Source: a bacterium
GTDB lineage: Bacteria > Acidobacteriota > Thermoanaerobaculia > Thermoanaerobaculales > Sulfomarinibacteraceae
NCBI GenBank assembly: GCA_024229275.1
Contig: JAAESQ010000884.1
Span: 6,120 to 70,119, forward strand
Length of the DNA stretch: 64,000 nucleotides
Direction of reading: 5' to 3'
The position numbers and the translations under genes are program-made. How positions within the stretch are numbered: the stretch's first letter is position 1; the number at the start of each line of letters is the position of its first letter. Below are positions 13,758 to 41,565 of the stretch, in pieces. Under the pieces are notes generated by a model. The model saw nothing but the letters and a program-made list of their open reading frames with translations, was not told the DNA's origin and did not search any database.

Positions 13758-16700
13758 TTAGTCACCTCCCGCTTTCTCTTTCGCTCGCACTTCGGTGCGC
13801 ACTTGCTTGGCCGCACCCATAATCTCTTTCACCTTGCCCTTGAGGACTTCGTTCCAATACTCTTCGGCCTTGGTGAGCTGCTCCTTTTGCTCTCCGTCCA
13901 GGCTTTCCAGGAACTCCTTGCGGTCCTTCTTGCGAATGTCGTTCAGCGGATCCATGTTCTGAAGCGACGTCTTGATGCCTGTCAGGTTGCCGCCCAGCGC
14001 GAAGTACTCGGCCAGATGCCGTTCTAGGGCTTCGCCGTCCTTGTACCGCCACGCCTGCTTTACGTTGTAGAGCGCTTCACTCTTCCCGCTGGAATCCCCG
14101 CCCCAGCTAACATCTCCATAGCCCTGGTCTTTATTGAATCTCCGGACCTCATCCTTCGCGCCGTAGTAGGCGATCTCGCCCGGATCGTACTCGTACACCA
14201 CGGCCTTCCAGAGCGCTTTCGTTGCCCAGTTCTTGGGTGCTGGCTTGCCTACCAGCTTCCGGTAGGCATCCTTTGGGACTCCGAGCTGTGTAGCCAGGAA
14301 CTCCTGGCGATCATGAATGGTCCGCGGCTTGAAGACGTCGGGGAACGCAGACCGCGAAAAACCAAGCTCACCGATCAACTTGTACTGCGGCATCAACCCA
14401 CTGGCAATCTTGTTCGCGGGGCTCTTGGCCATTTCTACGGCGATCTCTCGCAGCGTTCGCCGGCCGTTCAGGTACTGCCTAGCGTATTCCTGGGTACCGT
14501 CCAGTCCGAACCACTCAAGGAAGTCGTCCGCAATCCCGATGCGGTTGAACGTGACCACTTTCCCGTCTTCCGTGCGGCCCAACACGATGTGCGTTTTCTG
14601 CCGCTCGTTCTCTGGAATGTCTTTCTCTTCCTCAGGGGATCGCCAATCGTTGAGAGCAGCCATTAACGCCTTGAACGCTAGCACCTTCACGGTGAGAGAC
14701 CCGATGCGATAGAGGGTGTATGGACTCGCGGCCTTGCCAAGAACCTTCCGCCCTACAGTAGTCGCTAGCTTGCCGTCGCTAGCTGCATTCCTGTAGAGTC
14801 TGCCGTATCGGCGCGCGTTGATTTCCTGGAAACTCCAGAACGGGTAGAAGTACTTGCGAATCGCTTGGCCGGCGACTGAGATGTCGTCGTAGGCGCCGAT
14901 CATGTCGTTCGACAGTTTGAACGCTTTGTCGTGAATGCTGTCAAGGGCGTCAACTTCCTCACGCAGCGAGGCCCCGTAGTTGGCAGGTTGCCCGTCGGTC
15001 TTCTCTAGTTGGTCCAAGTACTCAAGGTAATTGGCGTACCGCAACACGGATTCGCGGAAGTTGGTAGCCTTCTGGACCGTGCCCCAGTAGTAGCTGTTCC
15101 ATGCGCGCTTGAGTAGATTCGGCTTGCTGTGTCTGCGGTTGACAAGGCTCTCCAGTTGCTCAAGGCGGTTCAAGTCGCCTATCTCCTGAACTTGCAGCAA
15201 ACTGCCGATACCACCACGGTCGAACCATGTGCGAAGTTCGGGTGACATCTCCCCGTCGCCGAAGAACATTTGCTTCAGATCCTTCATCGCACGCCTGAGC
15301 TGGCGGAAGGCTTTCGGGTTGCCGACGAATGTAGCCTCGGCGTCTCCGGAGAGGTTGCGTAGGTTGTACTTGATAGCCCGCGTCGGCATCAGCAGCATCC
15401 ACTGCTTCCACGCTCGCAAGGTCTTGCCAAACGCTACCTTCATCGCACGCTCAACACCCTTGCCACGGTCAGCATCGCCGAAGTCCTTCAGTGTCGCGGC
15501 CACTTCCTTCGTGAGGATGATCTGGCGCCGCTTCCCGCCCACTAGTAGAGCCCGGCGCAGATCATCAGCCGTGATGCCAACCTCTTTCCCTCCGGCTTCC
15601 AGAATTTGCTCTGCCAGCTTTTCTTCCACCGTCTGCCCGGAATAGAAGACATTGCCCTTGTCTGGCTGCCAGACCTCGTGAGTCCGCCGACCAAAGGCTT
15701 TCACCATCCGCTTGGGGTCCGCCGGATTGATCCAGTGCTCACCGGCCAAGTCCTGAATCTCGCGCTGCGTGAGGCCTTTGTAGAGTTTCTCCGGGGTAGT
15801 GTCCTGCTCCTTTGCCGCCGCTTCTAGCTTCGGCAGCACAATGGACTTGTTGTGCTCGTGGGCCTTCTGCTTGAACTCTCCGGTCTCATTGATGCCGTTC
15901 TTTTCGTCCTCAATCCATGCGATAGCCTCGGCCCGCCGGGCATCCCACATCATCTGCTGCAGCACTTCGAATTGCGCCTGTAGATAGTCGGTTGAGAAAT
16001 TCAGCGGGTTCGCCACCCGGCCCCTCATGTAGCTCGAGCGTGGGCTTGAGAGTTCCCTGGCAGCCGAAGCATAATCCTTGTTGCCAGCGGCTACCTGCTC
16101 CTCGATGTACTCAATGACGCGGTGATGGTAATAGTCCTCCCGGTTGAGTTTCTCTGCCACGTCGTTGCGGTCGATGGCCCGCATTGCCTCGATCAGTTCC
16201 GTTTTCGCCTCGTTCAGATAGCGCTTGTGCTCCGAGATCGCTTTCTGGATGGCGGGGTCTGCATCTGCGGCGGCGGTGGCCTTCTTCTGCGATTCCTTCA
16301 GTTGCTCCGGCGTGAGCTTGAACGGAAGATCGTTCCACTCGGTACCATCCTTGGTCATCCGGTCATGAGTCTCGACCATGTCGTCGATGATGACCTTCTC
16401 GATAAACTCTCGATACTGCTTCTGGTCGAGTGATCCAACGGTGTCGATGACTGCTTGGGAGGCATCGTGGATGGCGACGCTTCTCTGCTTCTCAAGCCGC
16501 TGAAGTTCGAAGATCAGGCCACCGTAGAGTTTGCGATCCAGTTCCAGGTAGGAACGCGAGACGGCGTGCCATCCCCTGCTCAACCGGTTCTTCCACTTGG
16601 TGATAGCCGACGGTGCCGGAACTTCTGCCGCAGCCTCGAACTCAGCGGCGGCTTCCGGTGGGAGAGCAGACTCGAAGCCCTCCATCTCGTCTGGAATCGG

Positions 16701-19700
16701 CTTGGGGGAGAGTGAGCCGCGTTGGCCTTCGCGGCGCTGCTCTGCTGGGGTGAGCTCTACTGGCTCGGCTTCTGCTTCTTCTAATAGGCCGGGGGTAGCG
16801 GGGGCCGCTGGACCGCTGAGCTGTCCAGCAGTTTCTTCACCTTCCGTAGAAACTGTCTGAGCTTTTCTTCCGAGAAGCGAGGATACAGCCTCTCGGACTG
16901 CTCCGTAGGCTTCTTCTCTGACGGCATTGGCATTCTTCCCGGACGCCAAGTCCTTAGCGCCCTTGCGGATGGCATCGTCAACTGGGCCACTCCGCAGTGC
17001 CAGTTTATCATAGATTTCCAGACTTTCAGCAACGCCTTTTGCAATGGCGGCGTTCCGTTCTGCTTGAATCACATTCCCCGCTTCGCCGAGTTGCGCTGCG
17101 GCGGCTTCCTTGCCAACCATCTCGAACAGCTTCTTTTCGCGGGAGAGGCGCTTTCTGATGTAGCTGTCAAGCTGTGCTTCCTCAACTGCAAGATTCTGCA
17201 GGACTTCCACATCTCCAAACAGGGTCTGCTCAGTTTCCGAAACTCGCTCAGCCCGTGTAACGCGACGGGCCAGCGTCTCAACCTCGCTGTTCGTCAGGCG
17301 CTTGCCTTTTTGTTGCGCCCTGTTCAGCAGCTCGAGGGCTGCTTTCTGGTCGGCCGGTTCAGCCAGCGTATCTCCGATGATGGCCCCATGCTTGAGGTCG
17401 AGGTCCCCAGAGGTCACCATCTCGAAGATTGGGGCCGTAAGGCGGGACAGTGCGACACCCTCACGGGCAAGTGGCTCGCGCAACGTTATGCTATGTTCCT
17501 GAAGTTTTTCTGGCGTGATCCCCATATCCCGAAAGAGTGTCGCCGCGTCTATAGCGCTACCGCGCCCTTCGGCGATGTTGATCAACGCTCCCTCGGCTCT
17601 GGCTTCTTGTGCGGTGTCGGCGTCCAGATATTGCACGTCGATGTTTTTCTGGCCGGTCCGCTGGGCCAATTCCAGACGATGATGCCCATTTACAACGTAG
17701 GTCTTGCCATCCGCCGGATCTTTCCAAACTGAGATCTCGCCACCAAGCTTTGGGACAAATTTTTCTACATCTTTCAGCGTTTCGCTGACGCCGGCTTTGC
17801 CGCCGGTCTCCCGTTTGAACTGAAACCGGACCGGGTCAACCGCGATGCTGTCTACGGGAAGTTCGAACACCCGAGAGGAGGGAGCGACCGCTCCGGCTAA
17901 CGCTTTCGGCGTCGTCACTCCACCGGAGAGAATCTCGCCCACCTGTATTCTCGCTGGCAATTGCGTGTGACCAGATTTCTCCGATGCCGCAAGCCGAAAA
18001 TTCCCCTCTACCAGCCTGACTAGATTGCGCTTCGGGTCATACCAGAGGATGAGCGGGGTTTCCACCCCGTTCTCGGCCATGTCTGCGGCAAGCTGGTCGA
18101 TGTACTGCTCAGTCGGCAGGCCCTCCCTGGTTTTTGGCCGCTGCTTGGGATCGCGCCGGTCAAATTCCGCGATGGACCGCAGTTCTTCGACCGGAATCAT
18201 GGTCGCCTGTTCCCATTCTGCCGAGGGCTTTTCCTTGATTCGGGCCTCGGTGAGCGCCTGCCCCTTGCCTGCTTTGGCGGGAGGAGGAGCCGGTGCACCA
18301 GCCGCCTCCTCCTCGGGTTTTTCGATAGCAGGGCTAACGTCCAAGGCGGTGGGAGCCCCTTCCGCCCCTCTTGCCGGAGCTTTCACGCTGCCATCTGGCT
18401 GCCGCTCGACCAAGCCTTCGTTGACCATTCGGTCAAGTACTTGGCCAGCCTGATCGAGCGAGATACCGAATTCGCGCCGGAGCTTCGTCTTGCCGAAATA
18501 GGGGCGCTTCTCGTCTTTCGCCCAGTCCGAGATTTGGCCGTACAGTTCGTCCGAGACCTCCTCCGGCACCGCTTCCGGCTTTTTGGGTGGCTTTGCCTTC
18601 TTCTTCCGCAGTAGCTTGTCAGCGGCTTCTCGCGTGCCAGAAAAGATGGTCTCGCCACCTTGCTTCAGGCGAACCCATGGCGTCTCGGTGATACCGGTCT
18701 CCTCGGTAATGGGCGGCTCACCGTCGATGGGAATCTCAGTCGGTGGTTCTGCCTTGGCCTTTGGTTTCGACGCAGCCGATGGGTGAACAATCGCTCCGGC
18801 ACCAACACCACCCAAGAATCCCCCCAACGCCTCAATGCCTGAGCCTTCCCATGGGTAGAACTCCGGCATTCCAGGAAATGCTTCCTGTAAAACCGACCGG
18901 CCAGTGGCTCCCTGTAACACCTCTTGAACAGGCTCAGACACGCCACCAGCCAGAGCCCGAACTCCACGGTTACGAATGAACGGGTTTAGAAGCCCCGCGA
19001 AGTTCAACGCCGCTGTGACTGGAACGTCCTTGGCGAACGACTCCACAAATAGGTCCCCTGCGGCCTTGTCGCTTTTCCCATACTCCTTCGCGGTGTCATA
19101 GGTTTCACCAGCGTTCACAAAGCTCTCGGAGAGAGATAGTGCCCCAGTGGCCTTCGCCGCCCCGCTCACCGTGTTGATGCCCTTGAGCATCCTCGCCATC
19201 GGCATCAGGAATGTCAGCATAGAGCCGCCAGCATTCCCAGCGTGGTGCGCGATGTATTCCGCGTCGAGCAGTAGCCATGGGGCCTCAAGCGGGTCCGTGG
19301 CGAACTTCTCAGCCTTCTCCGCCGTCGCTGGTAGTGAACCTTCGATAGCTTGCTTGCTGAACTTCTGGATCTCTTTCCCCACAGCCTTGAGAAGCGGGGC
19401 CCCTGCCTCATCCAGCAAGGTCTTGCGCATGGCGACATCTGGGGTCTGTTCCAGAATTGTTCCCAATGCTTCGAATCCAGACCCGGCCGTGCTCAAGACT
19501 CCATGCACGCCCATGCTCCCAGCTCGCATGAACGTGTCAAGGAGGCCCGGAACGTCTGCCTCGGTTGTACCAGCCAATGATGGCGGTTCAAGCGCGCGCT
19601 CCGTGGACGCCGCTGCGGCCGTCAGGACAGGGTCCGGCGGGGTTGGAATTCCGGGAAGGCCAGTTTGTTCTGCCCCTGGAGGTATGGGGACAGCCGTCTC

Positions 19701-20033
19701 GGCGGGACCGATTGGCGGGGTGACGCCACTGCTGATGAAGTCCGGCTGTTCCGGCGCATCCACGAACGCGCCCCGCTGGAGCCGGTCCAGTTCCTGCTCG
19801 ATGCCGGGACGGGGATCTGCTGGCGTCGCTGTCAGATTCTCCAGGTCCAGCACCATCTCCGGCTCGGGGCGCAGCCTCGGATCGGCGAGAAACTTGTGCT
19901 GCTCCTCTTTCGAAAGTTCGGTGAACTCCGGATCCGCCCATTGGACCACCTTGACTTGCTCATCAAGTGGGAGTTCGCGGAATTCCGGGTCCAGAAGGAT
20001 CTGCGGAACTGGCGGATAGTTAAACGTGGCCAT
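13758..20033 (-). CDS. giant (2091 aa) multidomain virion-module protein with two ParB/Srx-like domains; putative ejected polyvalent protein
   Basis: Single uninterrupted ORF. ParB-like motifs are LVEGNFRLAASEKSG (~nt 17934-18200) and VVNGHHRLELAQRTG (~nt 17619-17870). There is a winged-helix stretch resembling FtsK-gamma, KTKLRREFGISLDQAGQVLDRMVNEGLV (~nt 18384-18536). The protein also has a Pro-rich N-terminus and a Gly-zipper hydrophobic region. It sits in the slot that T7 gp16 occupies. Confidence 0.7.
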   Translation of the reverse strand: MATFNYPPVPQILLDPEFRELPLDEQVKVVQWADPEFTELSKEEQHKFLADPRLRPEPEMVLDLENLTATPADPRPGIEQELDRLQRGAFVDAPEQPDFISSGVTPPIGPAETAVPIPPGAEQTGLPGIPTPPDPVLTAAAASTERALEPPSLAGTTEADVPGLLDTFMRAGSMGVHGVLSTAGSGFEALGTILEQTPDVAMRKTLLDEAGAPLLKAVGKEIQKFSKQAIEGSLPATAEKAEKFATDPLEAPWLLLDAEYIAHHAGNAGGSMLTFLMPMARMLKGINTVSGAAKATGALSLSESFVNAGETYDTAKEYGKSDKAAGDLFVESFAKDVPVTAALNFAGLLNPFIRNRGVRALAGGVSEPVQEVLQGATGRSVLQEAFPGMPEFYPWEGSGIEALGGFLGGVGAGAIVHPSAASKPKAKAEPPTEIPIDGEPPITEETGITETPWVRLKQGGETIFSGTREAADKLLRKKKAKPPKKPEAVPEEVSDELYGQISDWAKDEKRPYFGKTKLRREFGISLDQAGQVLDRMVNEGLVERQPDGSVKAPARGAEGAPTALDVSPAIEKPEEEAAGAPAPPPAKAGKGQALTEARIKEKPSAEWEQATMIPVEELRSIAEFDRRDPKQRPKTREGLPTEQYIDQLAADMAENGVETPLILWYDPKRNLVRLVEGNFRLAASEKSGHTQLPARIQVGEILSGGVTTPKALAGAVAPSSRVFELPVDSIAVDPVRFQFKRETGGKAGVSETLKDVEKFVPKLGGEISVWKDPADGKTYVVNGHHRLELAQRTGQKNIDVQYLDADTAQEARAEGALINIAEGRGSAIDAATLFRDMGITPEKLQEHSITLREPLAREGVALSRLTAPIFEMVTSGDLDLKHGAIIGDTLAEPADQKAALELLNRAQQKGKRLTNSEVETLARRVTRAERVSETEQTLFGDVEVLQNLAVEEAQLDSYIRKRLSREKKLFEMVGKEAAAAQLGEAGNVIQAERNAAIAKGVAESLEIYDKLALRSGPVDDAIRKGAKDLASGKNANAVREEAYGAVREAVSSLLGRKAQTVSTEGEETAGQLSGPAAPATPGLLEEAEAEPVELTPAEQRREGQRGSLSPKPIPDEMEGFESALPPEAAAEFEAAAEVPAPSAITKWKNRLSRGWHAVSRSYLELDRKLYGGLIFELQRLEKQRSVAIHDASQAVIDTVGSLDQKQYREFIEKVIIDDMVETHDRMTKDGTEWNDLPFKLTPEQLKESQKKATAAADADPAIQKAISEHKRYLNEAKTELIEAMRAIDRNDVAEKLNREDYYHHRVIEYIEEQVAAGNKDYASAARELSSPRSSYMRGRVANPLNFSTDYLQAQFEVLQQMMWDARRAEAIAWIEDEKNGINETGEFKQKAHEHNKSIVLPKLEAAAKEQDTTPEKLYKGLTQREIQDLAGEHWINPADPKRMVKAFGRRTHEVWQPDKGNVFYSGQTVEEKLAEQILEAGGKEVGITADDLRRALLVGGKRRQIILTKEVAATLKDFGDADRGKGVERAMKVAFGKTLRAWKQWMLLMPTRAIKYNLRNLSGDAEATFVGNPKAFRQLRRAMKDLKQMFFGDGEMSPELRTWFDRGGIGSLLQVQEIGDLNRLEQLESLVNRRHSKPNLLKRAWNSYYWGTVQKATNFRESVLRYANYLEYLDQLEKTDGQPANYGASLREEVDALDSIHDKAFKLSNDMIGAYDDISVAGQAIRKYFYPFWSFQEINARRYGRLYRNAASDGKLATTVGRKVLGKAASPYTLYRIGSLTVKVLAFKALMAALNDWRSPEEEKDIPENERQKTHIVLGRTEDGKVVTFNRIGIADDFLEWFGLDGTQEYARQYLNGRRTLREIAVEMAKSPANKIASGLMPQYKLIGELGFSRSAFPDVFKPRTIHDRQEFLATQLGVPKDAYRKLVGKPAPKNWATKALWKAVVYEYDPGEIAYYGAKDEVRRFNKDQGYGDVSWGGDSSGKSEALYNVKQAWRYKDGEALERHLAEYFALGGNLTGIKTSLQNMDPLNDIRKKDRKEFLESLDGEQKEQLTKAEEYWNEVLKGKVKEIMGAAKQVRTEVRAKEKAGGD

Positions 20034-20034
20034 T

Positions 20035-21204
20035 TCAGAATGATGGCGAAATCAGATATTTTTGTCGGAAAGATTCGGCTGTCTTCTCTGGCGGCTTGCC
20101 TTGTGGGTAGTCTTTCTTGTCGTCCTCCTGGAAGATGCCCCATTGCTGGAATTTCGCCTGAAGCCGTGGCACAATCACTTCCCGCATGTTCCGGCTGGCC
20201 TTCAAATCGGCCCCTTTGCCCAAGAGAGTTTGGTAGTCATCTTCAATCTTTTGAGCACGCTTCACGTAGCTATCGACAGCTCTCTTGAATGGCCCAGTGT
20301 CCCCAGCCAGGTACTTGTCGTAGAGTTGTGTCCAGGCGTCTTTCGAGATATCGTCGTCCTCTTCTGTGTCCTGCAGCGCCTCCATCTTGGTCGCCCTGTT
20401 CTCCTCCAACACGGCAAGATGCTGCGGGCTATAAGGGCGTTTCCCTGTTTGCCGTGGCTGTCTCGGCGGGGCATCGGCTGGGCCTAAGTCCCAAGGCGTA
20501 ACTTTCCCGTCCTCATAAACATCGAGCCACTTGTGCCCGCCTTGATAGCGTGTTTCGAAATGTGGTGCTGGGCCTTTCTGCTCATCTGGTGTGGGTTCTA
20601 CCTCCCATTTGCCCTTGGTGACGTTGTACAGGCCCCCGCTGGTTTGCAGGATGCGGTCCTTCGTGGTAGCTTCGACTTCCCATTTGCCTTTCGTGACGTT
20701 GTATAAACCGCCGCCGACGGACCGGATGGTGTCGGCCGGCGGTGCCGGCTTCGCGTTCCGCGCCCGCTGCAGCTGCCCCATGTAGGCCGCCAACCGGGCT
20801 CGGCTTTCGATCCCTCGACTCTGGACATTCTGAATGGCGGAAACGCCTCTGATCTTGGCCAGTGTCCGATCCAACTCCCTGTCTTCCTGGCCCTGGATGT
20901 AGCCTTGCGCGCCCATCAGCCCTCGAAAGACGTCCGTCGGGCCACCGGTCGTCGACGGCGTAGCGGCAGCGGCGATACCTGGTCCCAGCAAGCCCTGCAA
21001 CACTGGAGCTATCCGCCGTCGCTGGCTTTTCTTCTTCGGTTTGCTACGCACAAAGGGAGGGGTACGAGCATCGACAGGGGCTGGGCCGGCATCTCCGTTC
21101 AGGAGGATCTTGAGCAGTTCTTCGGAGATAATCGGCTCATCCTCATAGAACAGCCCGCCGATGCGCCGTGGTATCTGTCTGAGGAAGCCGCCAACGTCTG
21201 GCAT
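20035..21204 (-). CDS. putative internal virion protein (389 aa)
   Basis: Basic N-terminus. Tandem repeat GGLYNVTKGKWEVE x2. Its position matches a T7 gp15-type core protein (inference). Confidence 0.5.
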   Translation of the reverse strand: MPDVGGFLRQIPRRIGGLFYEDEPIISEELLKILLNGDAGPAPVDARTPPFVRSKPKKKSQRRRIAPVLQGLLGPGIAAAATPSTTGGPTDVFRGLMGAQGYIQGQEDRELDRTLAKIRGVSAIQNVQSRGIESRARLAAYMGQLQRARNAKPAPPADTIRSVGGGLYNVTKGKWEVEATTKDRILQTSGGLYNVTKGKWEVEPTPDEQKGPAPHFETRYQGGHKWLDVYEDGKVTPWDLGPADAPPRQPRQTGKRPYSPQHLAVLEENRATKMEALQDTEEDDDISKDAWTQLYDKYLAGDTGPFKRAVDSYVKRAQKIEDDYQTLLGKGADLKASRNMREVIVPRLQAKFQQWGIFQEDDKKDYPQGKPPEKTAESFRQKYLISPSF

Positions 21205-21225
21205 CTGAGCGTGTCCTCCCTTCGT

Positions 21226-22770
21226 TTAGAAATAAGCCGGTATCGTCGGCCACAGTCCTGGGTTTGCTCCAGGGGAGGGACGCGTGGGAAGCGCACCGCC
21301 ACCGCCACCGCCGCCCGGCTTCAGCAGACCAGCTAGCGCCCCGGCTCCACCACCCGTAAACATATTCAGCGCTCCCATGCCGACCCCGCCGAGAGCCTTG
21401 GTCAGCCAGGCAGAGCTTGGCAACTCGTTAGCGTAGGTCTGAGCGTAGTTTCTGGAAGCGTCGTTGCCGAAGCCGCGGGCCGCATTGGCGGAATTGAGCA
21501 TATTTATAATGTCCTGCTGGCCCATTCCCGCGATTTCCTGGAACGGCTGATTCTGTATGTCCCGCATCCACTGCTCGAACTGCTGGCCTTGCCCGAACTG
21601 CTCCTTCCCGAGCTGGACCCCCAGGAGGTCCATCTGGTTCATCTGCTGCTTGATGTTCGAGACAGCTTCCCAGTCCTGCTGCTGCATCGCCCGCTGCAGT
21701 TGGGCATTGAGGGCGCGTTGTTGCAGGAGTTGGTTTGAACGATCCGCTGTGCGCTCGACGTTGCCTTCGGCTCTACCGGAGCGAATGCCTTCAATCCCGA
21801 GTTGCCGCGCGAGATCGGTCTCCTTCAGCCCCTGGACATTGCCAGACAGCGCCTGGCGGAGACCGATATCGGTGCCCATCTGAGCCTGCCCTAGCCCGAG
21901 CTCGCCAGCCAGTTCCTGCCGAGCTGCATCACTGAGAGCGCCACCCTTGGTCAGCGCCAACCGCATCGCGCGATCGGCGAACGCACCGCTCTCGCGGCCG
22001 ATCACGTCGTCTATGGCCCGAGCCCGCTGTCCGCCAACCCGAGACATCGCCGCCTGCCCCTCTGGAGAGTTCGGGTCGATGCCGAACTTCTTCAGGGACC
22101 GCATCGTCCGGGCGACTTCCGGCGCGAACGACCGAGCCACTGTGCCGGCGCGGAATTCGCCAGTCGGACGGGTCTGCTCCAACTCGTCGTAGGCAGTGGT
22201 GAACCCCTCGCCGAGGAGGTCGCGGACATCATCGAATGCCGCCCGATTCCGACCGCGGAGCTCGCCGAAGCCCTGGCCGGCGATGTCGATCAAGTTGCCG
22301 TAGTCGTCCGTCGCCCCCTCCACCAACTCGTTGGTCTTGCGGGAGGAGATGCCCGCCTCCCGGAGAGCGGATTCGGTGATCTCGTCGCGGACCTGATCAC
22401 TGGTACGGCCGATATTGCCGGCCTGTTCATCCATGAAGCGGGAGATCTGGTCAGCGGTCATGTTGGCCGGGGTGACACCTTGCTGGTAGGCCGACAAGAT
22501 GTCTTCCAGGCGACCGCCACCCTTGGCCAACACATCCTTGAACGGCATGATCTGCTCGCCAGTCCCCCGGACGTCGCCCACGTCGGGCGCACCAGCGGCA
22601 GCTTGCTGTTTCCAGTACTGGAGGGCGAGATCTCTCATCGCCTGGCCGCTCTGTCCGAACTTCTCCGACTTGTCGAGCCAGTTCTTGAACTGCTTGAAAG
22701 TCCACGCTCCCATTTCGCGCGGGAAGCCCTTCGCTTCCTTGCCTGCTGTGGAAAGTCCGAAAGCTGGCAT
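21226..22770 (-). CDS. putative internal virion protein (514 aa)
   Basis: Long Q/A/R-rich helical protein ending in a Gly-rich hydrophobic tail (GGVGMGALNMFTGGGAGALAGLLKPGGGGGGG). Its position matches a T7 gp14-type protein (inference). Confidence 0.5.
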   Translation of the reverse strand: MPAFGLSTAGKEAKGFPREMGAWTFKQFKNWLDKSEKFGQSGQAMRDLALQYWKQQAAAGAPDVGDVRGTGEQIMPFKDVLAKGGGRLEDILSAYQQGVTPANMTADQISRFMDEQAGNIGRTSDQVRDEITESALREAGISSRKTNELVEGATDDYGNLIDIAGQGFGELRGRNRAAFDDVRDLLGEGFTTAYDELEQTRPTGEFRAGTVARSFAPEVARTMRSLKKFGIDPNSPEGQAAMSRVGGQRARAIDDVIGRESGAFADRAMRLALTKGGALSDAARQELAGELGLGQAQMGTDIGLRQALSGNVQGLKETDLARQLGIEGIRSGRAEGNVERTADRSNQLLQQRALNAQLQRAMQQQDWEAVSNIKQQMNQMDLLGVQLGKEQFGQGQQFEQWMRDIQNQPFQEIAGMGQQDIINMLNSANAARGFGNDASRNYAQTYANELPSSAWLTKALGGVGMGALNMFTGGGAGALAGLLKPGGGGGGGALPTRPSPGANPGLWPTIPAYF

Positions 22771-25900: not shown

Positions 25901-26461
25901 CACTGTAGTTCCAGCCGCATCTGTCAATGTGACGGTAGCCGAATCCGTGACTGCGGAAATTGTTGTACCGTGATAGGTTCCGTCGGTACCGGCACCCTCT
26001 ATGACGACCAACCGGCCCACATCTTCAGCCGTGAAGTTGGCGGTTGCCGAAGTGAATGTTTGGGATGCCGCTGTAATCGCAGCATCATCGATCTTGCGCC
26101 CTCGCACCGCACCATACTCTAAGACTGTCCGCCGCGTGACTCCAAGGTTGAGGTCAATGTCTCTCGACACCTTGGCGCTTTCTTGGCCAGTGATAGCATT
26201 GAAACAGGACGCTACTACCGTGGACCCGCGGAACAACTGCAATGATTCCTGGGGTACTGGCAGGACGTAGTCGGGAAAACCAATATCCTTATCGATTCGG
26301 ATCAGAGTATGGGTGATGTTTGTGGTATCCGCCGGAAGACTCCACTTCAAGATGTTGTCTTCCAAGCGAATGTCTCGTGGTGGAGGGACAAACTTCCAGA
26401 GGATTTTGCCTGTGCGGGCGATGAGCTTCTCGGTGGGCGTGGTCAGGGTGGCTCTACTCAT
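22922..26461 (-). CDS. tailspike/tail fibre with probable right-handed beta-helix (pectate-lyase-like) body and HxH-rich C-terminal tip
   Basis: 1179 aa. VLEYGAVRGRKIDDAAI resembles the start of pectate-lyase-3-type depolymerases. The C-terminus is NLHTHT..NHDHGG..GGHNHIMG. ATGA overlap with the nozzle-position gene. Confidence 0.65.
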   Translation of the reverse strand: MSRATLTTPTEKLIARTGKILWKFVPPPRDIRLEDNILKWSLPADTTNITHTLIRIDKDIGFPDYVLPVPQESLQLFRGSTVVASCFNAITGQESAKVSRDIDLNLGVTRRTVLEYGAVRGRKIDDAAITAASQTFTSATANFTAEDVGRLVVIEGAGTDGTYHGTTISAVTDSATVTLTDAAGTTVSGATAGIGPDSTDGFNAALADVDYVEIPFGTYILNGKVTLGEHTRLIGDSRSTVYLFNGDDDFTFEMLTELATPASTKVPLITGMRFENFTLYAKNGIKLNREWDDVTTPENPESDWDKQGFILGVIVRQVYFRGEYNSALDANYETATAPTLSELRGYGVAFHTNKLFDSQISLCDFRQYGLGILFSGCDINEISTTRLHQNARHWQSRYKIVTGVDFIGSSNNLSQCDMLVNYRVGGIYLDSSLHHTIFNCFFENPATARDSTTYLITTNDLWTRVVENRFSTTKGSGSGTSTPYFDVDPRWGLEFAHNTWNVGVGGVPEVTAKITTNSWSTTYQQHVRFLDNDPELPLPDAPLQDGAYDEYRLDYKNWQGVSGPVLSSYPFIQSGVTGRWVFQVTTGSLFWNTSLKRPSHRRLLFEYWARKITAGGGQSAFYLEDVGTCTVDAGTDVISSTGHGQNNDDRVQFRTTATLPDPLVQGTSYWVINATANTLQVSTSQGGAAVDITDTGVGTHYLRHRDELYNQTHGHSDTTKATYFRHTGRLPSSRRGDGELFLIFDNTVAELESIQVTPIAYELASAIPTDSDHDVGDVVFNTLPEKVEPYGWVFNNASSWMPLARFGNGLGYDFLDANDSLGDTIHMIAVDTTTGDITLTLPDGSDLTRSGMWYFIQNLTGGNAVILDAAGADTINNAATYRLERDDQVVLLMCYGAGKWQAQHIGNQYEILKVDDHIELGINDSPTFVKKIESLNGTPEGVITANAGSLALDDAGVLWLKESGVGNTGWKEVSGLWAALSSDEIGTTYQVRLEDTSNSRPMQLRIEANIHANQASTALINAEGFLVNYVGRAKAKALGVNYDYPATDGWAAISAFLGVGTNARNASEALHVSGASRLNGALELPTLTALRACYTDGSKNLISSTVTNVELAYLAGVTSALQTQLNDRYTKAEVDALLANKVGTTTYNLHTHTNVSAPNHDHGGAVAADGGHNHIMGTP

Positions 26462-28605
26462 GGCCGGTTGCGCCCTCCCCCGACGTGGTAGAGGAGCCTG
26501 GCGATCGACGCGAACAGGTTATTCGTTCCTGTCAGTTCGTCCGCTGGCCGGTTGTAGGTGTCCCCGCTGCCTGAGTAATCACCCGTCAGCCGGGCCGCGA
26601 TCTTGAACAGCGTTTTGTTGTGGGATGCGAGTTTATGGCGCCAGATCCTGGCATCTCCAGCCTGTGGCCGCTGTGCTTTCTGTTGCCCGCGCTTCAGCTT
26701 GTCCGCAGTCACTGGCTCGTGGTCGGCGTACCATTCGATGGCAGTCTGCTCGTCGCCGAACACATCGACCTCACTCAGTTGCTTCACCAGGGAACCGTCG
26801 CCGAGGTCGTCCCACTGCCCTTCCCAGTAGCCGGTGATGTCCGCTTGCGTCTTGTTGTCCACGTCCACATACGACTCGTCGTAGGTGACGACATCCCCGC
26901 TCTCGTCGGCTTGGCCTTCGATGGTGTAGATGTGCTGCTTGGCGATGATGTGCTGCTGCTGGCCGGCCGTGTTCATGACCGTCGATGCGGCCGTGTAGTC
27001 CTGGCTGGTGTAGAGGTAGCCCATGCCGTCGGGCTGCTGCGGCGTCCGCAGCTTGAAATCGTGGATGAGGAGTGTCCCATCGGTGAAGTAGACACGGGCC
27101 TGATCGATCTCGTTCAGCGGGTCAACCAGGTAGGACATGAACCTGGGTGTGAGGCCATAGAGGGCGGCTTCGTAGTCGTCGGAGATGACTGAGACGTGCT
27201 CCCAGCCCTTCTGGTGCCGGACCACCTGATTACGCTGAGTCAGCCAGATAGCCCCATGATCGGTCTGGATGTAGCAGTCCTTGTTGGCGATGCCGTGTAT
27301 CGCCGAAATCTCCGTCCACTGATGATATCCGTCAGCCGCTTCAGTGACCAGGAATGACCGGGTGGCGGTGTTCACGACCAACTGCACACCGTCAGGCGCC
27401 GGGGAGACCCGGAGCGGCTCCTCGGCGCTGGGGCAGGCGGTGAAGTTTGTCAGCGGCCAGGACTCCTCCGGGTTGCCGATGAGGGTAGCGTTGGTGGTGA
27501 GGTCGCTTGCCGACTTCGAGTAGACAAGCCCCTGTCTGTAACGTTTGGCGGCGATATAGGTGAAGTCCAGCCCCTGTGTTCCGCCCGGCCGCTCCTGAAC
27601 CACCCCCGAACCGGAGCCTCCGCCGGCAAGGACTCCATAGACCCGCTGGTTGATGTAGGCCATGGAGCGCATCGGCCGAGGCGGGTGGTTGTCGATCTGC
27701 ATCTCGGAGGTGAAATCTTTCACCCAGCCGTTGCCGCCGTTGTAGATCGAGAGACTGGCCGTCGTCTCAGTGACGGCCACCTGGTGAGCATCATTCAGTG
27801 CTGCATTGAGTAGCAGATACGGCGTCTCGCCGCCCTGAATGGTGGCGTAAAAGACGAACTTCAGTTCATTGCGCTCGTCGGTGTCGATGTAGGTTGTTTT
27901 CAGCCGATCGAGATTCGAGACGGTGATCGTGCCGGTGGTGCCGCCCGTCGAGGAAATCGACCCGCAAAGGATGCCGTTTGAGAAATGACCCGTGTCGGTG
28001 TTGTAGAGCCCGACGTAGATCTTGAGCGTGCCGGTGGACTGGTTGAATCCGGCGCCAGCGGCGAAGGCCACCGACGGATTCGATGACGGAGCGTAACAGT
28101 CCAGCCCGAAGTTGCGCATGTCCGTGCCGTCCCAGCTCCAGAATGGTGGCTTGGAAAACGTACTGCCGTTGCGCACCCCGAGGCCGTTGTAGAGAATCGA
28201 CCGGTCGTTGATGTTGAGGATCGGCGCCGTCTCGGTGGTGGTCCAGTCGCCGCCGTAGTTCTGGTCGATCTCGATATCCGCTGCGTCGATCTGGAAGAAC
28301 GGGTCGAAGGTCCATACCGTGACTGCCAGCCAGCGCCAGTAGACAGTCGAGCCGTCCACTTCTTGAACGAGATGCTGATCGTAGCCCCAGGAGCGTGAGG
28401 AGCGGAAGTTGTGAAACTGATAGAAGTTGCCGGCGGCGTTGTACAGGCGTGCTTTTCGCCCACTGCGCAGCCGCAGCCAGAAGTCCGGCATGATCCGGAA
28501 ATCGTTACCAGCGGCGGCGGTGCCGATCAGGCGTTCGATGGGATTGCCACGCAGGTAGAGCCCCATGAAGTTACGTCTTTGTTGGGGCTCAATGCGATCG
28601 GCCAT
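26458..28605 (-). CDS. putative tail nozzle / tail tubular protein B-position protein (715 aa)
   Basis: Its size and its position after the adaptor-position gene match T7 gp12. There is no motif-level proof. Confidence 0.5.
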   Translation of the reverse strand: MADRIEPQQRRNFMGLYLRGNPIERLIGTAAAGNDFRIMPDFWLRLRSGRKARLYNAAGNFYQFHNFRSSRSWGYDQHLVQEVDGSTVYWRWLAVTVWTFDPFFQIDAADIEIDQNYGGDWTTTETAPILNINDRSILYNGLGVRNGSTFSKPPFWSWDGTDMRNFGLDCYAPSSNPSVAFAAGAGFNQSTGTLKIYVGLYNTDTGHFSNGILCGSISSTGGTTGTITVSNLDRLKTTYIDTDERNELKFVFYATIQGGETPYLLLNAALNDAHQVAVTETTASLSIYNGGNGWVKDFTSEMQIDNHPPRPMRSMAYINQRVYGVLAGGGSGSGVVQERPGGTQGLDFTYIAAKRYRQGLVYSKSASDLTTNATLIGNPEESWPLTNFTACPSAEEPLRVSPAPDGVQLVVNTATRSFLVTEAADGYHQWTEISAIHGIANKDCYIQTDHGAIWLTQRNQVVRHQKGWEHVSVISDDYEAALYGLTPRFMSYLVDPLNEIDQARVYFTDGTLLIHDFKLRTPQQPDGMGYLYTSQDYTAASTVMNTAGQQQHIIAKQHIYTIEGQADESGDVVTYDESYVDVDNKTQADITGYWEGQWDDLGDGSLVKQLSEVDVFGDEQTAIEWYADHEPVTADKLKRGQQKAQRPQAGDARIWRHKLASHNKTLFKIAARLTGDYSGSGDTYNRPADELTGTNNLFASIARLLYHVGGGRNRP

Positions 28606-29261
28606 CAGTTCATCGAGATAACGCGCCTTCTGGGCGCCGGTTCGGCCTCCGGCGACAGCGACACGATGCCAGCTTGGTATTCCTTCAGTTCGTTGGAATA
28701 CCGCGGGTCGCCCTCGCCCAGACGATCCGCAAGGATCAACATCCTGGTTCTGGTGACGAGCAGCCCCTGGATGTCGTTCGGCATGTACTCATCGAGGTCG
28801 GGATCCGAGACGCCCGTGAAGGGAATCAGCCATTCGTAGACGGCCCGGATGGTGGTGCTGAAATTCGACAACGCGGCCAGCTTGAACTCCCATCCGCCGG
28901 AGCCGTCGTGGACGATGTAGTACTCGGCAGGCACAACAGCCTCGGTCGAGTTCTCGGCTTCGATGATTCGTTCCGGCCGGTCTCCGATGTAGCTCATCTC
29001 GGTGTCAGAGAGGGTGCCGTCGGCGAGCGCCAGCTTGATCATGCGGAAGCGCTTCCAGTCGCTCGGGAGAGAATACGTCTTGTTAGTGGTGTCGATCGAT
29101 GTCGACCATGGCTTCACTTGCCAGAATGTCTCGCCGATCTGCTCCTTGATATCGCGGAGGAATTGGGGAACGACAACGTACCGCAGCTCGCCCGAGAGGT
29201 CGAAATTAGCGTCGGCCATCCCCTCGCGGTTGGCTATCCCGATCACGTCCTGGATTGTCAT
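28605..29261 (-). CDS. putative head-tail adaptor / tail tubular protein A-position protein (218 aa)
   Basis: Position as for T7 gp11. 1-nt stop/start overlap downstream and ATGA overlap upstream. Confidence 0.45.
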   Translation of the reverse strand: MTIQDVIGIANREGMADANFDLSGELRYVVVPQFLRDIKEQIGETFWQVKPWSTSIDTTNKTYSLPSDWKRFRMIKLALADGTLSDTEMSYIGDRPERIIEAENSTEAVVPAEYYIVHDGSGGWEFKLAALSNFSTTIRAVYEWLIPFTGVSDPDLDEYMPNDIQGLLVTRTRMLILADRLGEGDPRYSNELKEYQAGIVSLSPEAEPAPRRRVISMN

Positions 29262-30620: not shown

Positions 30621-31838
30621 CTACGCCATGTAGTCGGTGACGTTGGCGAGAATCCCGTGATGCTTCTCACGTTGGACCTTGTATCCAAACTCGGTCAGGA
30701 TCTCGTCCGACTTTCCGTCAGCGCCGTTCTGGATCACGTCCCGGTACACCTTGGTGTCCCGGTTGATCCCGTTGTTGTTGAGATACAGGAAGGTCAGCTC
30801 AGCCATGTCGAGACCGATGCCGATGTTGCCCCACCCGTAGGCATCGTTCGGGTCGTTCTCAAGCATCCAGTCGCGCACGACGTCGATTGTGCCGTGAGGC
30901 GTCTGGACTTCCAGAATTTGCATGCCGAACTTGGTCTCGCGCGGCGTCACCATCAGGTGGCTGACGCCCCAGGCCTGAATTGCTTCGACGATGATCGGGG
31001 CGAACACCCCGAGCTTCCGCTTCTTGTTGCCATAGCGGAACAGGGTGCGCGACCACGCGACGAACTTTTTGTAGGTCAAGGTGCCGCTGACGTCGGTCAC
31101 GTTGGTGGTGATGGTCTCGATCAGCCCCATGGTGCTGCGGATCGGGTAACTGGTCGGCCCGCCCTGAAGCGACTGGGAAGCCTGTCCCCAGATCAGGACG
31201 GAGTTCATCTTCTGCTTGTGCTCGACCATATCCTCGATATGGGCCAGGTCGCGGTCGCTCCTGCCGGCGGTGCCGTAGGTGTTGGTGGCGATGGCGGTGT
31301 TCGAGAACTGGGTCGGAGTCCGGACGATCTGGAGATAGGTCTCCTTGCGGGTGGGGATTGCGCGCTTCTGGGACGGGAAGCTCGAATACTCTTCGAACAT
31401 CGGCCCGATGATGCGAAGCGGCTGGCTGGCGACGATCACCTGCAGGCCGCTGCCGCCCACATTGCGCGAAACTGTCAAAGCGTTGGTGGACACACTCACG
31501 ACCCGGATCATTTCTCCGATGGCGTAGGTGCCCTTGATCGGCGGAACGATGAAGCAGTCACCGGCCACGAACTTCGTGCCGTCAGCCACGTTCACCGTGA
31601 CGGAGCCGGCATTGGCGGCCGTGTAGTCCTGGTTGACTGCCCACCGTGCGAGCCGGTCCTTCTCGTACCACTCGCAGTGGGTGGATTTGACGGCCCGGCG
31701 ACGTTTCAGCGCGTTCATCATGGTGATGAGCGGTGCCGCATCGGGGTCGTAATACAGAATTTTGGGACCAACGTCGCGAACATTGCGCGTCTCGTTGATC
31801 TCCTGGTAGGTCGTAAGTGGAGTGATGTACTGTGCCAT
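30621..31838 (-). CDS. major capsid protein (HK97 fold, N4/SU10-like type)
   Basis: 405 aa, directly after the scaffold gene and before a terminator. The N-arm motif is PLITMMNALKRRRAV..EWYEKD. A small beta-barrel insertion (VADGTKFVAGDCFIV..VVSVSTNALTVSR) is typical of this capsid class, as recalled from memory. Confidence 0.8.
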   Translation of the reverse strand: MAQYITPLTTYQEINETRNVRDVGPKILYYDPDAAPLITMMNALKRRRAVKSTHCEWYEKDRLARWAVNQDYTAANAGSVTVNVADGTKFVAGDCFIVPPIKGTYAIGEMIRVVSVSTNALTVSRNVGGSGLQVIVASQPLRIIGPMFEEYSSFPSQKRAIPTRKETYLQIVRTPTQFSNTAIATNTYGTAGRSDRDLAHIEDMVEHKQKMNSVLIWGQASQSLQGGPTSYPIRSTMGLIETITTNVTDVSGTLTYKKFVAWSRTLFRYGNKKRKLGVFAPIIVEAIQAWGVSHLMVTPRETKFGMQILEVQTPHGTIDVVRDWMLENDPNDAYGWGNIGIGLDMAELTFLYLNNNGINRDTKVYRDVIQNGADGKSDEILTEFGYKVQREKHHGILANVTDYMA

Positions 31839-36096: not shown

Positions 36097-37068
36097 TTAA
36101 TTGGCCCTCCTTGAAGTCATCGAACTGATGTAGCGCGGCTCCGCAGTGAGCAGATACCGCAAGTTGTCGATCATGTGGCGGCGAGCTTTGACGCCGCGCT
36201 GCCAGAGTTCCTCGTCCTGGAGTGAACCGGCCTTGCGCCCCTTGTAGCGATGCCGGCGCATCTCAAGCCGCAGTTCGTGGACGTTACTGGAAAAGTGAAG
36301 CCGCGGCCATTGCCCGAACTGGTTGTGGTGGCGGGGCTCAAGCGCTTCGTGGACAGCATCGTAGCCGGCGCGGTGCCGCTTCACCGGGTCCGCGCACTCG
36401 ATACCGAACTGCGCGAACGTATCGGCGATCGACTGCTGAGAGTCCTCATCCTTGGTGGCGATGAACCCCTTGCCGGCTTGATCCATATACCGCTCGACGA
36501 TCTTCTCTCCGCCGTTCATGGCGTAGAGGCCGTAGCAGTCCGGCGTATTCGGGTTCTGCCAGTCGATTCGGTTGCCTTCGTACCAGGCGATCGCCCCGCA
36601 GTAATCCTTGTAGTTGAACTTGGTTTCGTCGTCGCCGTCACGCGGGGTCTTGGTCTGAGCGTAGAAGTTCGACGGCCACATCTCGCGGTAGACGTACATG
36701 TCTTCCCACTGATCGACGCCGAGCCAGAGCACTGCGGTCGGTGTCCGCGGGTGCGGATCGATCGAGCAGTACATGGTCATCTCGCGTGGGATGGCCTCAT
36801 GGGGAATGACGTGGATCGACTCGTCGTACTCAGGAAAGACCAGCGAGCCGGTCAGCGCGTAGTGATCAAGGTCGATTTCCTGGCGAAAGAAAGCGTCCGA
36901 GAGGAATTGTTTTCGCTTCTCTGTGCGCCACTCCTCGGATCGCTTGTCGGGATCGGCGGTAGCGTGGACACGGAGAACGGCGTGGCCCTCGGGAGTGACG
37001 CAGAACAGCATTCCGGTGCCTGGGCGGCGGATACTGGGATCGGCGTTGAGCGCCGCTATATTAGGCAT
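36097..37068 (-). CDS. terL: large terminase, C-terminal part (ATPase lid plus RNase-H-like nuclease)
   Basis: 323 aa. Nuclease Asp motifs are MYCSIDPHP, YMDQAGKG and MIDNLRYLL. It starts 13 nt before the stop of the ATPase ORF, in another frame. Confidence 0.75.
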   Translation of the reverse strand: MPNIAALNADPSIRRPGTGMLFCVTPEGHAVLRVHATADPDKRSEEWRTEKRKQFLSDAFFRQEIDLDHYALTGSLVFPEYDESIHVIPHEAIPREMTMYCSIDPHPRTPTAVLWLGVDQWEDMYVYREMWPSNFYAQTKTPRDGDDETKFNYKDYCGAIAWYEGNRIDWQNPNTPDCYGLYAMNGGEKIVERYMDQAGKGFIATKDEDSQQSIADTFAQFGIECADPVKRHRAGYDAVHEALEPRHHNQFGQWPRLHFSSNVHELRLEMRRHRYKGRKAGSLQDEELWQRGVKARRHMIDNLRYLLTAEPRYISSMTSRRAN

Positions 37069-37844
37069 TCCACCTCATCCAGTCCCATGAGCTGTCGCAA
37101 TTCCTCGTCTTGCTCATCCTCGGCGTCATACTCTTCCGGCCAGCTCGTCGGCACTGCGGACATATCCATATCCGCGAACGGGCCGGGGTTCGGGCTCGAT
37201 AGCGCAATGATGTGCAGGCAATCGCAGCCGACCGCCGTGTTGTACGCCTGGTCGAATTCGTCGTAGTGCGCCGCCTCGTCGCAGACATAGATGGTCGGGT
37301 GCTCGGATCGGATCTTGGCGGGGTTGCCGGTCAGCGCCAGCCAGCGGGCCCGGTTGCGGAGGGTGAATTCGTGTTCCGGCTGCCTGTCCGGATCCTTGTC
37401 GACCGGCCAGCGCGCCTTCAGTTCCGGAAGCGAATTCTTCCACATCTCCTTCACGTAGCGCACGTCGTGAATCGCCCTCTCCTCGTCGGCAGACTGGAAG
37501 ATGGTGGACGTGCCGGCGTGATTGAAACCGAAGTGGGCCGTCCAGGCGGAGACGCTCCAGGAGCACATCATCGTGCGCGACTTCGGGATAAGCTTGACTT
37601 TTAGAGGGCATCGGTCAAGATAGTTCAGAATCGTCCGCAGGTATGTCTTCGCTGGGAACGGCTTGTACGGGTTCATTGGATCCTGCTCGTCCAGCGTCTT
37701 GGTCCCCCGCACCATCCAGTAGAACTTGTCCCTCAAGCAGCGCCGGACTACCAACTCCCGCTCGATCCGCTCCATTTCCTGGACGGCTTGATTGAGCGCG
37801 AATGTATTTACCCGCGGTGCGCTGGAGCTTGGTGTAGCGCTCAA
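37056..37844 (-). CDS. terL: large terminase, N-terminal ATPase part
   Basis: 262 aa. Deviant Walker A LIPKSRTMMCSWS, Walker B IYVCDEAAHY, coupling motif IIALSSPNPG, and an acidic tail. TTG start at 37844 is preceded by GGAGGAG. Confidence 0.75.
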   Translation of the reverse strand: MSATPSSSAPRVNTFALNQAVQEMERIERELVVRRCLRDKFYWMVRGTKTLDEQDPMNPYKPFPAKTYLRTILNYLDRCPLKVKLIPKSRTMMCSWSVSAWTAHFGFNHAGTSTIFQSADEERAIHDVRYVKEMWKNSLPELKARWPVDKDPDRQPEHEFTLRNRARWLALTGNPAKIRSEHPTIYVCDEAAHYDEFDQAYNTAVGCDCLHIIALSSPNPGPFADMDMSAVPTSWPEEYDAEDEQDEELRQLMGLDEVECLI

Positions 37845-41531: not shown

Positions 41532-41565
41532 GTCAATATTCCTTTTGGTTGTTGACAATAGGCAT

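Follow-up and report, generated by a model that had tools for sequence, protein, structure and literature searches.

A 2091-residue polyvalent-type phage protein combining two distinct ParB-superfamily domains with a conserved N-terminal header and a predicted all-alpha C-terminal module

The stretch of DNA analyzed here, called the window, comprises 64,000 nucleotides (nt) from a bacterium of the Sulfomarinibacteraceae (Acidobacteriota; GenBank assembly GCA_024229275.1, contig JAAESQ010000884.1, positions 6,120 to 70,119) and carries, within a block of phage structural genes, a single open reading frame (ORF) for a protein of 2091 residues, in the following called the giant. We found that the giant joins an N-terminal header and a C-terminal module (module B), both recurring in other proteins, to a central cassette whose predicted parts are a winged helix, a ParB_N/Srx-type domain of minimal size (ParB1) and a larger ParB-superfamily module (module A). 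The giant is probably a packaged polyvalent ejection protein of a phage, delivering a nucleotide-dependent DNA-binding cargo at the onset of infection. Polyvalent proteins were described by Iyer, Burroughs, Anand, de Souza and Aravind in 2017 (J Bacteriol; PMC5512222) as giant multidomain proteins that phages and conjugative elements encode and, by prediction, package and inject, and the published inventory includes DdrB-like and other ParB domains as well as the winged helix-turn-helix (wHTH) of FtsK. That concept has thus already been published and the giant is a new example, not a new kind of system. What is absent from curated libraries is module A as a lineage in which a ParB N-terminal domain (NTD) is followed by a helix-turn-helix (HTH) domain and which is tied to portals and ejection giants, together with module B plus header as a recurrent carrier.

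The uninterrupted ORF of 6.3 kb and 2091 residues claimed in the original prediction was recovered in the ORF list, with an ATG start and a translation free of internal stop codons. The genes here are tightly spaced in a head-to-tail arrangement: the upstream ORF ends 1 nt before the ATG of the giant, the ATG of the downstream ORF follows directly after the stop codon of the giant, and the last codons of the giant contain GGAGGTG, a Shine-Dalgarno-like (ribosome-binding) sequence for that downstream ORF. Since single polypeptides elsewhere join the same modules (the retrieved proteins P0141, P0137, P0139 and P0142), the ORF is, as judged from sequence, not a frameshift or assembly artefact, nor several genes run together as had been considered beforehand. 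The motifs listed earlier (DPEF repeats, a Gly-rich hydrophobic region, ParB and C-terminal motifs) were likewise all found at mapped positions, with DPEF at residues 15 and 34, KTKLRREFGISLDQAGQVLDRMVNEGLV at residues 515–542 as the putative recognition helix of the winged helix, LVEGNFRLAASEKSG at residues 674–688 (LVEGNFRL starting at residue 674), VVNGHHRLELAQRTG at residues 780–794 (VVNGHHRL starting at residue 780) and YFYPFWSFQEINARRYG at residues 1728–1744. By composition, the conserved pieces are set apart by linkers rich in Pro, Ala and Glu. Searched as a whole, the giant gave only a weak MarR_2 match in Pfam, with no ParB_N at E ≤ 1, nothing useful in NCBIfam and nothing real in a sequence search of the PDB, and close relatives of the whole protein were not found in IMG/VR.

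Table 1. Features of the giant and of its gene block in the window
Feature	Position (nt)	Strand	Basis
Whole ORF, polyvalent-type virion giant	13758..20033	-	ORF list, translation, operon packing
N-terminal signature of about 45 residues (residues 12–52): two DPEFxxL(P/S)xxEQxK repeats, then DPxxxP	19878..20000	-	Motif scan
Conserved Gly/Ala-rich N-terminal header (residues ~114–440)	18714..19694	-	phmmer, composition
Gly-zipper-like hydrophobic segment SGIEALGGFLGGVGAGAIVH (residues 398–417)	18783..18842	-	Kyte-Doolittle 19-residue window maximum 1.37
Predicted winged helix-turn-helix (residues ~495–552)	18378..18551	-	AlphaFold2 model, Foldseek
ParB domain 1 (ParB1; residues 607–700), predicted minimal ParB_N/Srx-type, motif EGNFR (G677, R680)	17934..18215	-	Family profile
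Module A (residues 711–1063): predicted ParB N-terminal domain (NGHHR, G783–R786), HTH domain, beta-hairpin, long helices	16845..17903	-	PHROG, AlphaFold2, Foldseek
Module B, conserved C-terminal module, predicted all-alpha (residues 1177–2065), ~890 residues	13839..16505	-	BLASTP, family search, AlphaFold2
Most conserved module B motif YFYPFWSFQEINARRYG (residues 1728–1744)	14802..14852	-	Alignment, 23 sequences
Second hydrophobic helix RIGSLTVKVLAFKALMAALN (residues 1776–1795), inside module B	14649..14708	-	Kyte-Doolittle maximum 1.41
Two upstream ORFs (389 and 514 residues), presumed co-packaged internal proteins	20035..22770	-	Position only
Adaptor candidate 28605–29261 and nozzle-size ORF 26458–28605	26458..29261	-	Mark short-tailed virion module
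Major head protein	30621..31838	-	phrog_1328, E 7e-19

Mapping of domains on the retrieved proteins showed header and module B together in P0137, P0139, P0141 and P0142, of which P0141 (3968 residues) also has module A. The cargo in the middle differs, being a 2H phosphoesterase in P0137 and, at an equivalent position (residues 663–797), a DdrB-ParB in P0142. The DdrB-like ParB family (PF18763) is present in the relatives P0004 and P0142, gave no match in the giant, and other giants with module A have 2H, ART-PolyVal, InPase or LPD1 domains. We found 126 module-B ORFs in metagenome-assembled genomes (MAGs) and IMG/VR viral contigs, with N-terminal extensions ranging from <200 to >3300 residues, four of them with module A and two with a ParB_N-type domain; the full series of wHTH, ParB_N and ParB-HTH was seen in no other retrieved protein. 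By these sequence comparisons, header and module B form a conserved carrier with exchangeable middle cargo. Related genes also have virion-type surroundings, with P0117 (module B; locus L003) lying downstream of SU10_MCP and SU10_adaptor and before tail-like genes, P0004 following a 1004-residue soluble lytic transglycosylase (SLT) protein, and P0142 (header, DdrB-ParB and module B) preceded by a pair of ORFs of 475 and 447 residues, similar to the pair upstream of the giant, and followed by fibre-sized ORFs.

In these respects the giant is similar to polyvalent proteins such as DdrB/DarB of phage P1, which are also single polypeptides of unrelated domains encoded in the late or virion block of a portal-terminase phage, and its relatives swap cargo likewise. 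It differs in that it contains no zincin motif, a zincin metallopeptidase being frequent although not universal among polyvalent proteins, and in that its ParB domains do not belong to the DdrB-ParB Pfam family. The earlier likening to polyvalent proteins (PMC5512222) thus agrees well with a conserved header and C-terminal module flanking exchangeable cargo.

The header matched the N-termini of proteins of 2000–5000 residues (P0135–P0147) with E-values from 4e-43 to 1e-12 in a phmmer search of 1.8 billion representatives, the matches to the N-terminus of the giant starting at residues 2–13, and no Pfam or NCBIfam model covers it. The double-DPEF signature was also seen at the N-termini of the otherwise different giants P0143, P0165 and P0186 and of the 177-residue protein P0149, and a PGTExTGLP-like motif at about residues 120–128 is common to the giant, P0137, P0139, P0141, P0142 and P0149; either the double repeat or this motif may be a packaging or targeting signal. 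The two hydrophobic segments, one near the end of the header and one within module B, may engage the membrane, possibly by insertion.

At the other end of the giant, module B has 27–54% identity to a family of proteins of 1100–1500 residues and to the C-termini of P0002 and P0004 (the latter two by BLASTP), the family members P0114–P0134 giving E-values down to 3e-268. P1731, F1732, W1733, S1734, E1737 and N1739 are invariant in the 23 aligned sequences, and the invariant motifs include PFWSxxExN and KYNxRNxxGD. The AlphaFold2 (AF2) model is all-alpha, with a predicted template modelling (TM) score of 0.75. The helical C-terminal region had earlier been put at about 1200 residues; the conserved module proved to be shorter, at about 890 residues, and to be preceded by a Pro/Ala/Glu-rich linker. 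In BFVD, dozens of phage giants have C-terminal parts of similar fold, and UniProt gives these proteins names such as 'large polyvalent protein associated domain', LPD38, RelA/SpoT, Zeta toxin, ART-PolyVal and helicase. The family itself matched neither LPD38 nor any other Pfam model, nor any NCBIfam model, and its profile gave only coiled-coil noise against PDB sequences. The module B loci in Bryobacterales MAGs (L037–L051 and L055) include several copies per genome, one MAG having at least seven loci on three contigs, which points to several related prophages or to some other multicopy element.

Module A was modelled by AF2 with a predicted local distance difference test (pLDDT) above 90 throughout. 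In Foldseek, the model matched Noc (7nfu and 7ol9), ParB (6t1f, 7bnr and 6sdk) and KorB (8qa9) at E-values of 1e-6 to 1e-4, with target-normalised TM-scores up to 0.62 and over about 210 columns that correspond to the nucleotide-binding N-domain and the HTH domain of 7nfu, 6t1f and 8qa9; Srx was also matched. The predicted fold agrees with the beta-alpha-beta-beta-helix-beta order of the ParB/Srx superfamily, with GxxR carried on the helix. Past the HTH, the model continues with more helices, a beta-hairpin and long helices to about residue 1053. Putative counterparts of ParB boxes I–III were invariant or nearly so in 44 module A sequences (D733, P734, R736, F737, Q738 and K740; N782, G783, H784 and R786; R812, N819 and E822), with G783 and R786 of the GxxR motif strictly invariant. 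When aligned with hhalign to a manually entered Spo0J sequence, module A placed its GHHR over GERR and its HTH region was aligned as well (P 0.0097). These models indicate that module A is a ParB-superfamily module of NTD, HTH and helical part, having the same domain grammar as the cytidine triphosphate (CTP)-switch clamps ParB/Spo0J, Noc and KorB, with which it shares an NTD directly before the HTH and the GxxR; it also has putative counterparts of boxes I and III. It differs from those clamps in its box residues, in its C-terminal helical domain and in being embedded in a 2091-residue virion protein. The profile of module A gave nothing real against PDB sequences, kinship to ParB clamps being below the detection of hidden Markov models (HMMs) there, and no Pfam or NCBIfam model covers the module, residues 715–900 giving no match to Pfam ParB_N.

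The distribution of module A points to virions. In PHROGs it matched phrog_21 ('portal protein'), over the last 350 positions of that family, with an E-value of 4e-75 and phrog_1033 ('ParB-like') with 1e-7. We retrieved 104 homologues, more than 100 of them at E < 1e-30, including many stand-alone proteins of 340–470 residues and several fused to portals of the Mu gp29 type (PF06074) or the lambda type (PF05136). Module A was also found in a 2563-residue ORF of the Prochlorococcus podophage P-SCSP1 (ULF49719.1; 32% identity, HMM E 2e-99), which lies after gp11 and gp12 homologues and three further ORFs and before a fibre-sized ORF, that is, in the slot of T7 gp16, and in a 3912-residue ORF of Ruegeria phage 45A6 (31% identity, HMM E 3e-56). 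Each of these is the largest ORF in its virion block, and header, ParB1 and module B were not detectable in either by sequence. In the P-SCSP1g locus (L001, 10699–18390, ULF49719.1), module A spans residues 366–792 of the 2563-residue protein. For the P-SCSP1 authors it was no more than a guess that these genes code for internal virion proteins, and they were unable to annotate them (PMC9860041); the published genome and cryo-electron microscopy (cryo-EM) papers on this phage make no mention of a ParB-like domain. Apart from the general paper on polyvalent proteins (PMC5512222), our literature searches turned up no paper that ties ParB-like domains to podovirus ejection proteins. The portal fusions, the portal-annotated C-terminal part of phrog_21 and the P-SCSP1 giant in the gp16 slot support a virion association of module A, as far as such comparisons can indicate. 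The original prediction had regarded a double ParB module in a podovirus core-protein slot as unusual, which is overstated, a ParB cargo in such a slot not being unusual in view of the two phage giants, the four module-B ORFs and the ParB domains listed in PMC5512222.

ParB1 was studied through its relatives, of which an exhaustive phmmer search gave about 50 that match residues 607–700 and nothing else of the giant, many being stand-alone proteins of 130–200 residues. Their alignment (A3) has the consensus VPV..L...EFDR...L..DI..NGI..PLIL.Y...A.L.EGNHRLAAA..LG....PVRV, with EGNFR in the giant and with G677 and R680 in invariant columns. Pfam ParB_N was matched by 14 of 18 ParB1 homologues (best E-value 1.1e-6), and in PDB searches the A3 profile matched Noc (7nfu) at 8e-7 and, within a range of 8e-7 to 1e-3, also ParB, Spo0J, SbnI and KorB. 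The AF2 model was moderately confident (pLDDT 63–82), falling below 50 at the GxxR helix. These profile matches indicate that ParB1 is a minimal ParB_N/Srx-type domain without HTH. We rejected the view of ParB1 as a tandem duplicate of module A, the HMM of which misses residues 607–700; ParB1 is a separate family, with kinship only at the superfamily level. When the giant was removed from both alignments, hhalign still compared the ParB1 and module A families with a probability of 95% (E 3.7e-8), over the strand-strand-GxxR-helix core. Of the original claim of two consecutive ParB domains, membership of both in the ParB superfamily was hence borne out by profile, Foldseek and hhalign comparisons, and tandem duplication was not. 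The domain and profile searches proposed for the ParB fold succeeded transitively, through the 14 of 18 homologues, the A3 profile and hhalign, and not above the Pfam threshold. Two copies of a ParB1-family domain are found in each of the other giants P0151, P0152 and P0166, and ParB-type doubling therefore recurs in this class of protein.

The winged helix was modelled by AF2 with confidence even in the absence of homologues (pLDDT 85–93), as three helices and a wing. The best target-normalised Foldseek match was the gamma domain of FtsK (2j5p; TM-score 0.71, root-mean-square deviation (rmsd) 2.0, 61 columns), with the wHTH domains of IclR, MarR and DasR having comparable Foldseek E-values (0.2–0.4) at an rmsd of 2.4–5.6. 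All Pfam scores were sub-threshold, at 3.8e-4 (21 bits) for MarR_2, 0.011 for GntR and 0.025 for FtsK_gamma; the last (PF09397) reached 14.7 bits compared to a cutoff of 30.6, with MarR_2 and GntR scoring equally well or better. The winged helix named in the original prediction is thereby confirmed at the level of the modelled fold, while its FtsK-gamma label is not established.

On the basis of these domains we propose that the carrier, consisting of the header with its double-DPEF signature, Gly-rich region and one hydrophobic segment together with the ~890-residue module B, would pack the giant into the capsid core and expel it through the tail of a short-tailed phage at infection. The middle cassette, with its winged helix, minimal ParB_N/Srx-type domain and module of ParB-NTD, HTH and helices, would be a DNA-directed cargo, binding DNA in a nucleotide-dependent manner at the very start of infection. 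Its most likely target would be the entering phage genome, the leading end of which it could hold, protect or organise, with host DNA a less likely target, and the helical tail of module A could provide dimerisation.

Binding or clamping of DNA is favoured over a deoxyribonuclease (DNase) activity because module A resembles a full clamp unit of NTD and HTH and not the nuclease-type ParBs. A nuclease, be it a nucleoside triphosphate-regulated and sequence-nonspecific nickase or DNase acting on host DNA or on the incoming genome, is what Iyer et al. predicted for polyvalent ParBs from the precedents of Osa, GmrS, ParB-methylase and sulfiredoxin (PMC5512222), and ParB1 would suit such a role, its family lacking an HTH and resembling enzymes of the Srx/SerK/SbnI type (the SerK match being weak), with the A3 profile weakly touching 5k5d, a 'ParB domain protein nuclease' (E 0.25). 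We nevertheless consider a nuclease unlikely, as module A comes structurally closest to CTP-switch clamps, over both NTD and HTH, as an acidic metal-binding nuclease motif was not identified, albeit with no systematic test, and as a nuclease stored beside the packaged DNA would have to be tightly inhibited.

If the cargo of the giant is a DNA-binding one, a delivered ParB clamp would have a functional analogue in HerB (YfjB), a ParB-like leading-region protein of conjugative plasmids with a CTP-binding domain, an HTH and a novel dimerisation module, which is active during the first minutes that follow the entry of DNA (PMC13370423, bioRxiv 2026). The analogy is purely functional, HerB being expressed in the recipient and not delivered as a protein. 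Kinship of module A with HerB was rejected, there being no detectable module A homologues among 72,556 plasmids. Module A is encountered as a separate protein beside portals, as a fusion to portals, or inside ejection-protein giants. One could go further and regard the module A family as a phage-specific clade of virion-borne nucleotide-switch clamps of ParB type, which would load on the leading genome end as the genome exits the capsid and either protect it from exonucleases and defence or pull it in, with the wHTH and the Srx-like ParB_N adding recognition or regulation. We hold this more specific scheme to be quite doubtful. Should it be true, plasmid HerB would have a counterpart that is delivered as a protein, and the ParB CTPase fold would have a further, new function, even in abundant marine cyanopodoviruses, as exemplified by P-SCSP1.

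The proposed virion role agrees with the position of the gene. All large genes between about 6.3 and 38.5 kb of the window are on the minus strand, among them the major head protein, the adaptor candidate (218 residues; Pfam SU10_adaptor E 2.3e-5, 25.4 bits, just under the cutoff of 27) and a nozzle-sized ORF (715 residues), the last assigned by size and position alone. The nozzle candidate is separated from the presumed internal proteins by an ORF of 1179 residues with a pectin-lyase-like N-terminal part (fibre or spike), after which come the ORFs of 514 and 389 residues, the giant, and ORFs of 115, 524, 930 and 921 residues, one of the latter four having a weak lectin-like match. The 389- and 514-residue ORFs matched nothing in PHROGs or Pfam and were not similar to anything in related loci, and PDB sequence searches with the candidate nozzle and portal ORFs found nothing. 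The head protein, the adaptor-like and fibre-like neighbours and the related loci thus support the earlier placement of the giant in a virion module. The T7-like gene order that had been proposed is present only loosely, with the 1179-residue fibre or spike gene intervening before the presumed internal proteins, and the two upstream 'core-type' proteins are in the expected position, this label being positional since they have no detectable homologues.

That position also bears on the idea that the giant is no virion protein at all, instead being an early or late cytoplasmic effector, for instance a partition or anti-defence ParB of a temperate phage, encoded among structural genes. The phage is probably temperate because of the integrase at 52117–53034, ParBs serve in plasmid-prophage partition, and the packaging of the giant is something that we infer. 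Even so, we find such an effector very improbable, as the gene lies inside a tightly packed structural-gene block, as header and module B were found only in giants sited in virion modules, as the plasmids searched held no homologues, and as a 2091-residue fusion with an 890-residue all-alpha module is unlike the architecture of partition ParBs.

Several observations weigh against the giant as an ejected, nucleotide-dependent DNA-binding protein of a short-tailed phage. Packaging and ejection are what we infer both for the giant and for its close relatives. The podovirus assignment leans on the sub-threshold adaptor match and on analogy, because no homologues were detectable for the two ORFs upstream of the giant or for the candidate nozzle and portal. 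Neither ParB domain of the giant passes the Pfam ParB_N threshold directly, ParB1 (searched as residues 600–705) reaching 15.3 bits (PF02195; E 0.02) compared to a cutoff of 26.3, and CTP binding by the module A family is not assured, the motifs DPxRFQxK (733–740), NGHHR (782–786) and NIAEG differing from the canonical NPxQPR, GERR and ENxQR. The giant has no HExxH or HxxEH zincin peptidase motif that could provide release of the cargo; HExxH stretches, as judged by eye, are present in the relatives P0002 and P0004. In Foldseek comparisons of module B with the PDB no match with E < 0.3 was obtained, T7 gp15 and gp16 and the entry for the A4 pre-ejectosome not being recovered, and module B has no sequence similarity to gp26–gp29 of A4. 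A 1114-residue protein of Anabaena phage A-4L did match module B in BFVD (Foldseek E 3.5e-7), at TM-scores of only 0.33–0.38; its length fits ORF26 of A-4L (gp26), and the link to module B is at fold level only. Finally, a portal-fused module A would stay in the virion unless cleaved, which fits a role within the capsid as well as a delivered one.

The giant, mostly alpha-helical and encoded by the largest ORF after the adaptor and nozzle genes, is nonetheless comparable to T7 gp16 and to gp26–gp29 of Anabaena phage A4. They differ in that T7 gp16 has an N-terminal lytic transglycosylase whereas the giant has no SLT domain, and in that the giant has no PDB sequence or fold match to the T7 or A4 ejection proteins. 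We also discarded the readings of the giant as an N4-like virion RNA polymerase and as a homologue of T7 gp16, there being no PDB fold match for module B and no polymerase among the PHROG and Pfam matches. By cryo-EM, A4 gp26 is a DNA-contacting outer-layer component of a pre-ejectosome that holds a circle of double-stranded DNA through gp26 and gp27 (PMC12002296). The wHTH and ParB modules could likewise serve purely to anchor or organise the packaged genome at the internal core or portal, with nothing to do after ejection, much as those two proteins hold the first turn of DNA in A4. In favour of this are the fold-level match of module B to the predicted gp26 model and the repeated fusion of module A to portals, proteins that do not leave the virion. 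We judge this improbable, in that the polar residues similar to boxes I–III are strictly conserved in the 44 module A members, a conservation that points to catalysis or the binding of a ligand more than to a purely electrostatic contact with DNA, and in that the corresponding place of the chassis is taken in relatives by cargo that is clearly enzymatic and directed at the host (2H phosphoesterase, ART, InPase).

Seen as a delivered polyvalent protein, the giant makes this locus a clean example of effector design in short-tailed phages, with swappable cargo placed between a header and a carrier of about 890 residues. It also brings out two widespread modules that are outside Pfam and NCBIfam, namely module A, which is portal-fused and present in the P-SCSP1 giant, and module B, with over 120 loci in viral contigs and MAGs. 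If module A is a nucleotide-gated clamp delivered with the genome, it would join the field of ParB CTPases to phage genome delivery and anti-defence, and P-SCSP1 is a cultured system that carries a giant with module A.

With regards to the rest of the window, no close relative of the phage was found in INPHARED, IMG/VR or the GTDB representatives, and homology of the neighbouring genes with those of related loci was essentially nil. The single match concerned the 930-residue ORF downstream of the giant (9029–11821, minus strand), of which the N-terminal ~115 residues match, at 32% identity (E 1.5e-7), the N-terminus of a 654-residue ORF (L057, 18092–20056) that follows further downstream of P0142, a related giant; the shared N-terminus is possibly a fibre-anchoring domain. 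A weak signal for the large subunit of terminase (TerL) was seen at 36097–37844 on the minus strand, divided over two overlapping ORFs, with ORF 37056–37844 similar to positions 282–412 and ORF 36097–37068 to positions 385–594 of phrog_2, which could represent a split or frameshifted TerL or very divergent domains. Upstream of the packaging genes, the C-terminal half of a 425-residue ORF (40455–41732, minus strand) strongly matches a DNA methyltransferase family (phrog_359, 5e-52). The integrase is a tyrosine integrase on the plus strand (phrog_1, 4e-36), and the element is probably either temperate or a prophage with an edge near 52–53 kb. Beyond the integrase, a transaldolase-like gene (55446–56165, minus strand; phrog_440, 2e-24) may belong to the host or else be an auxiliary metabolic gene.

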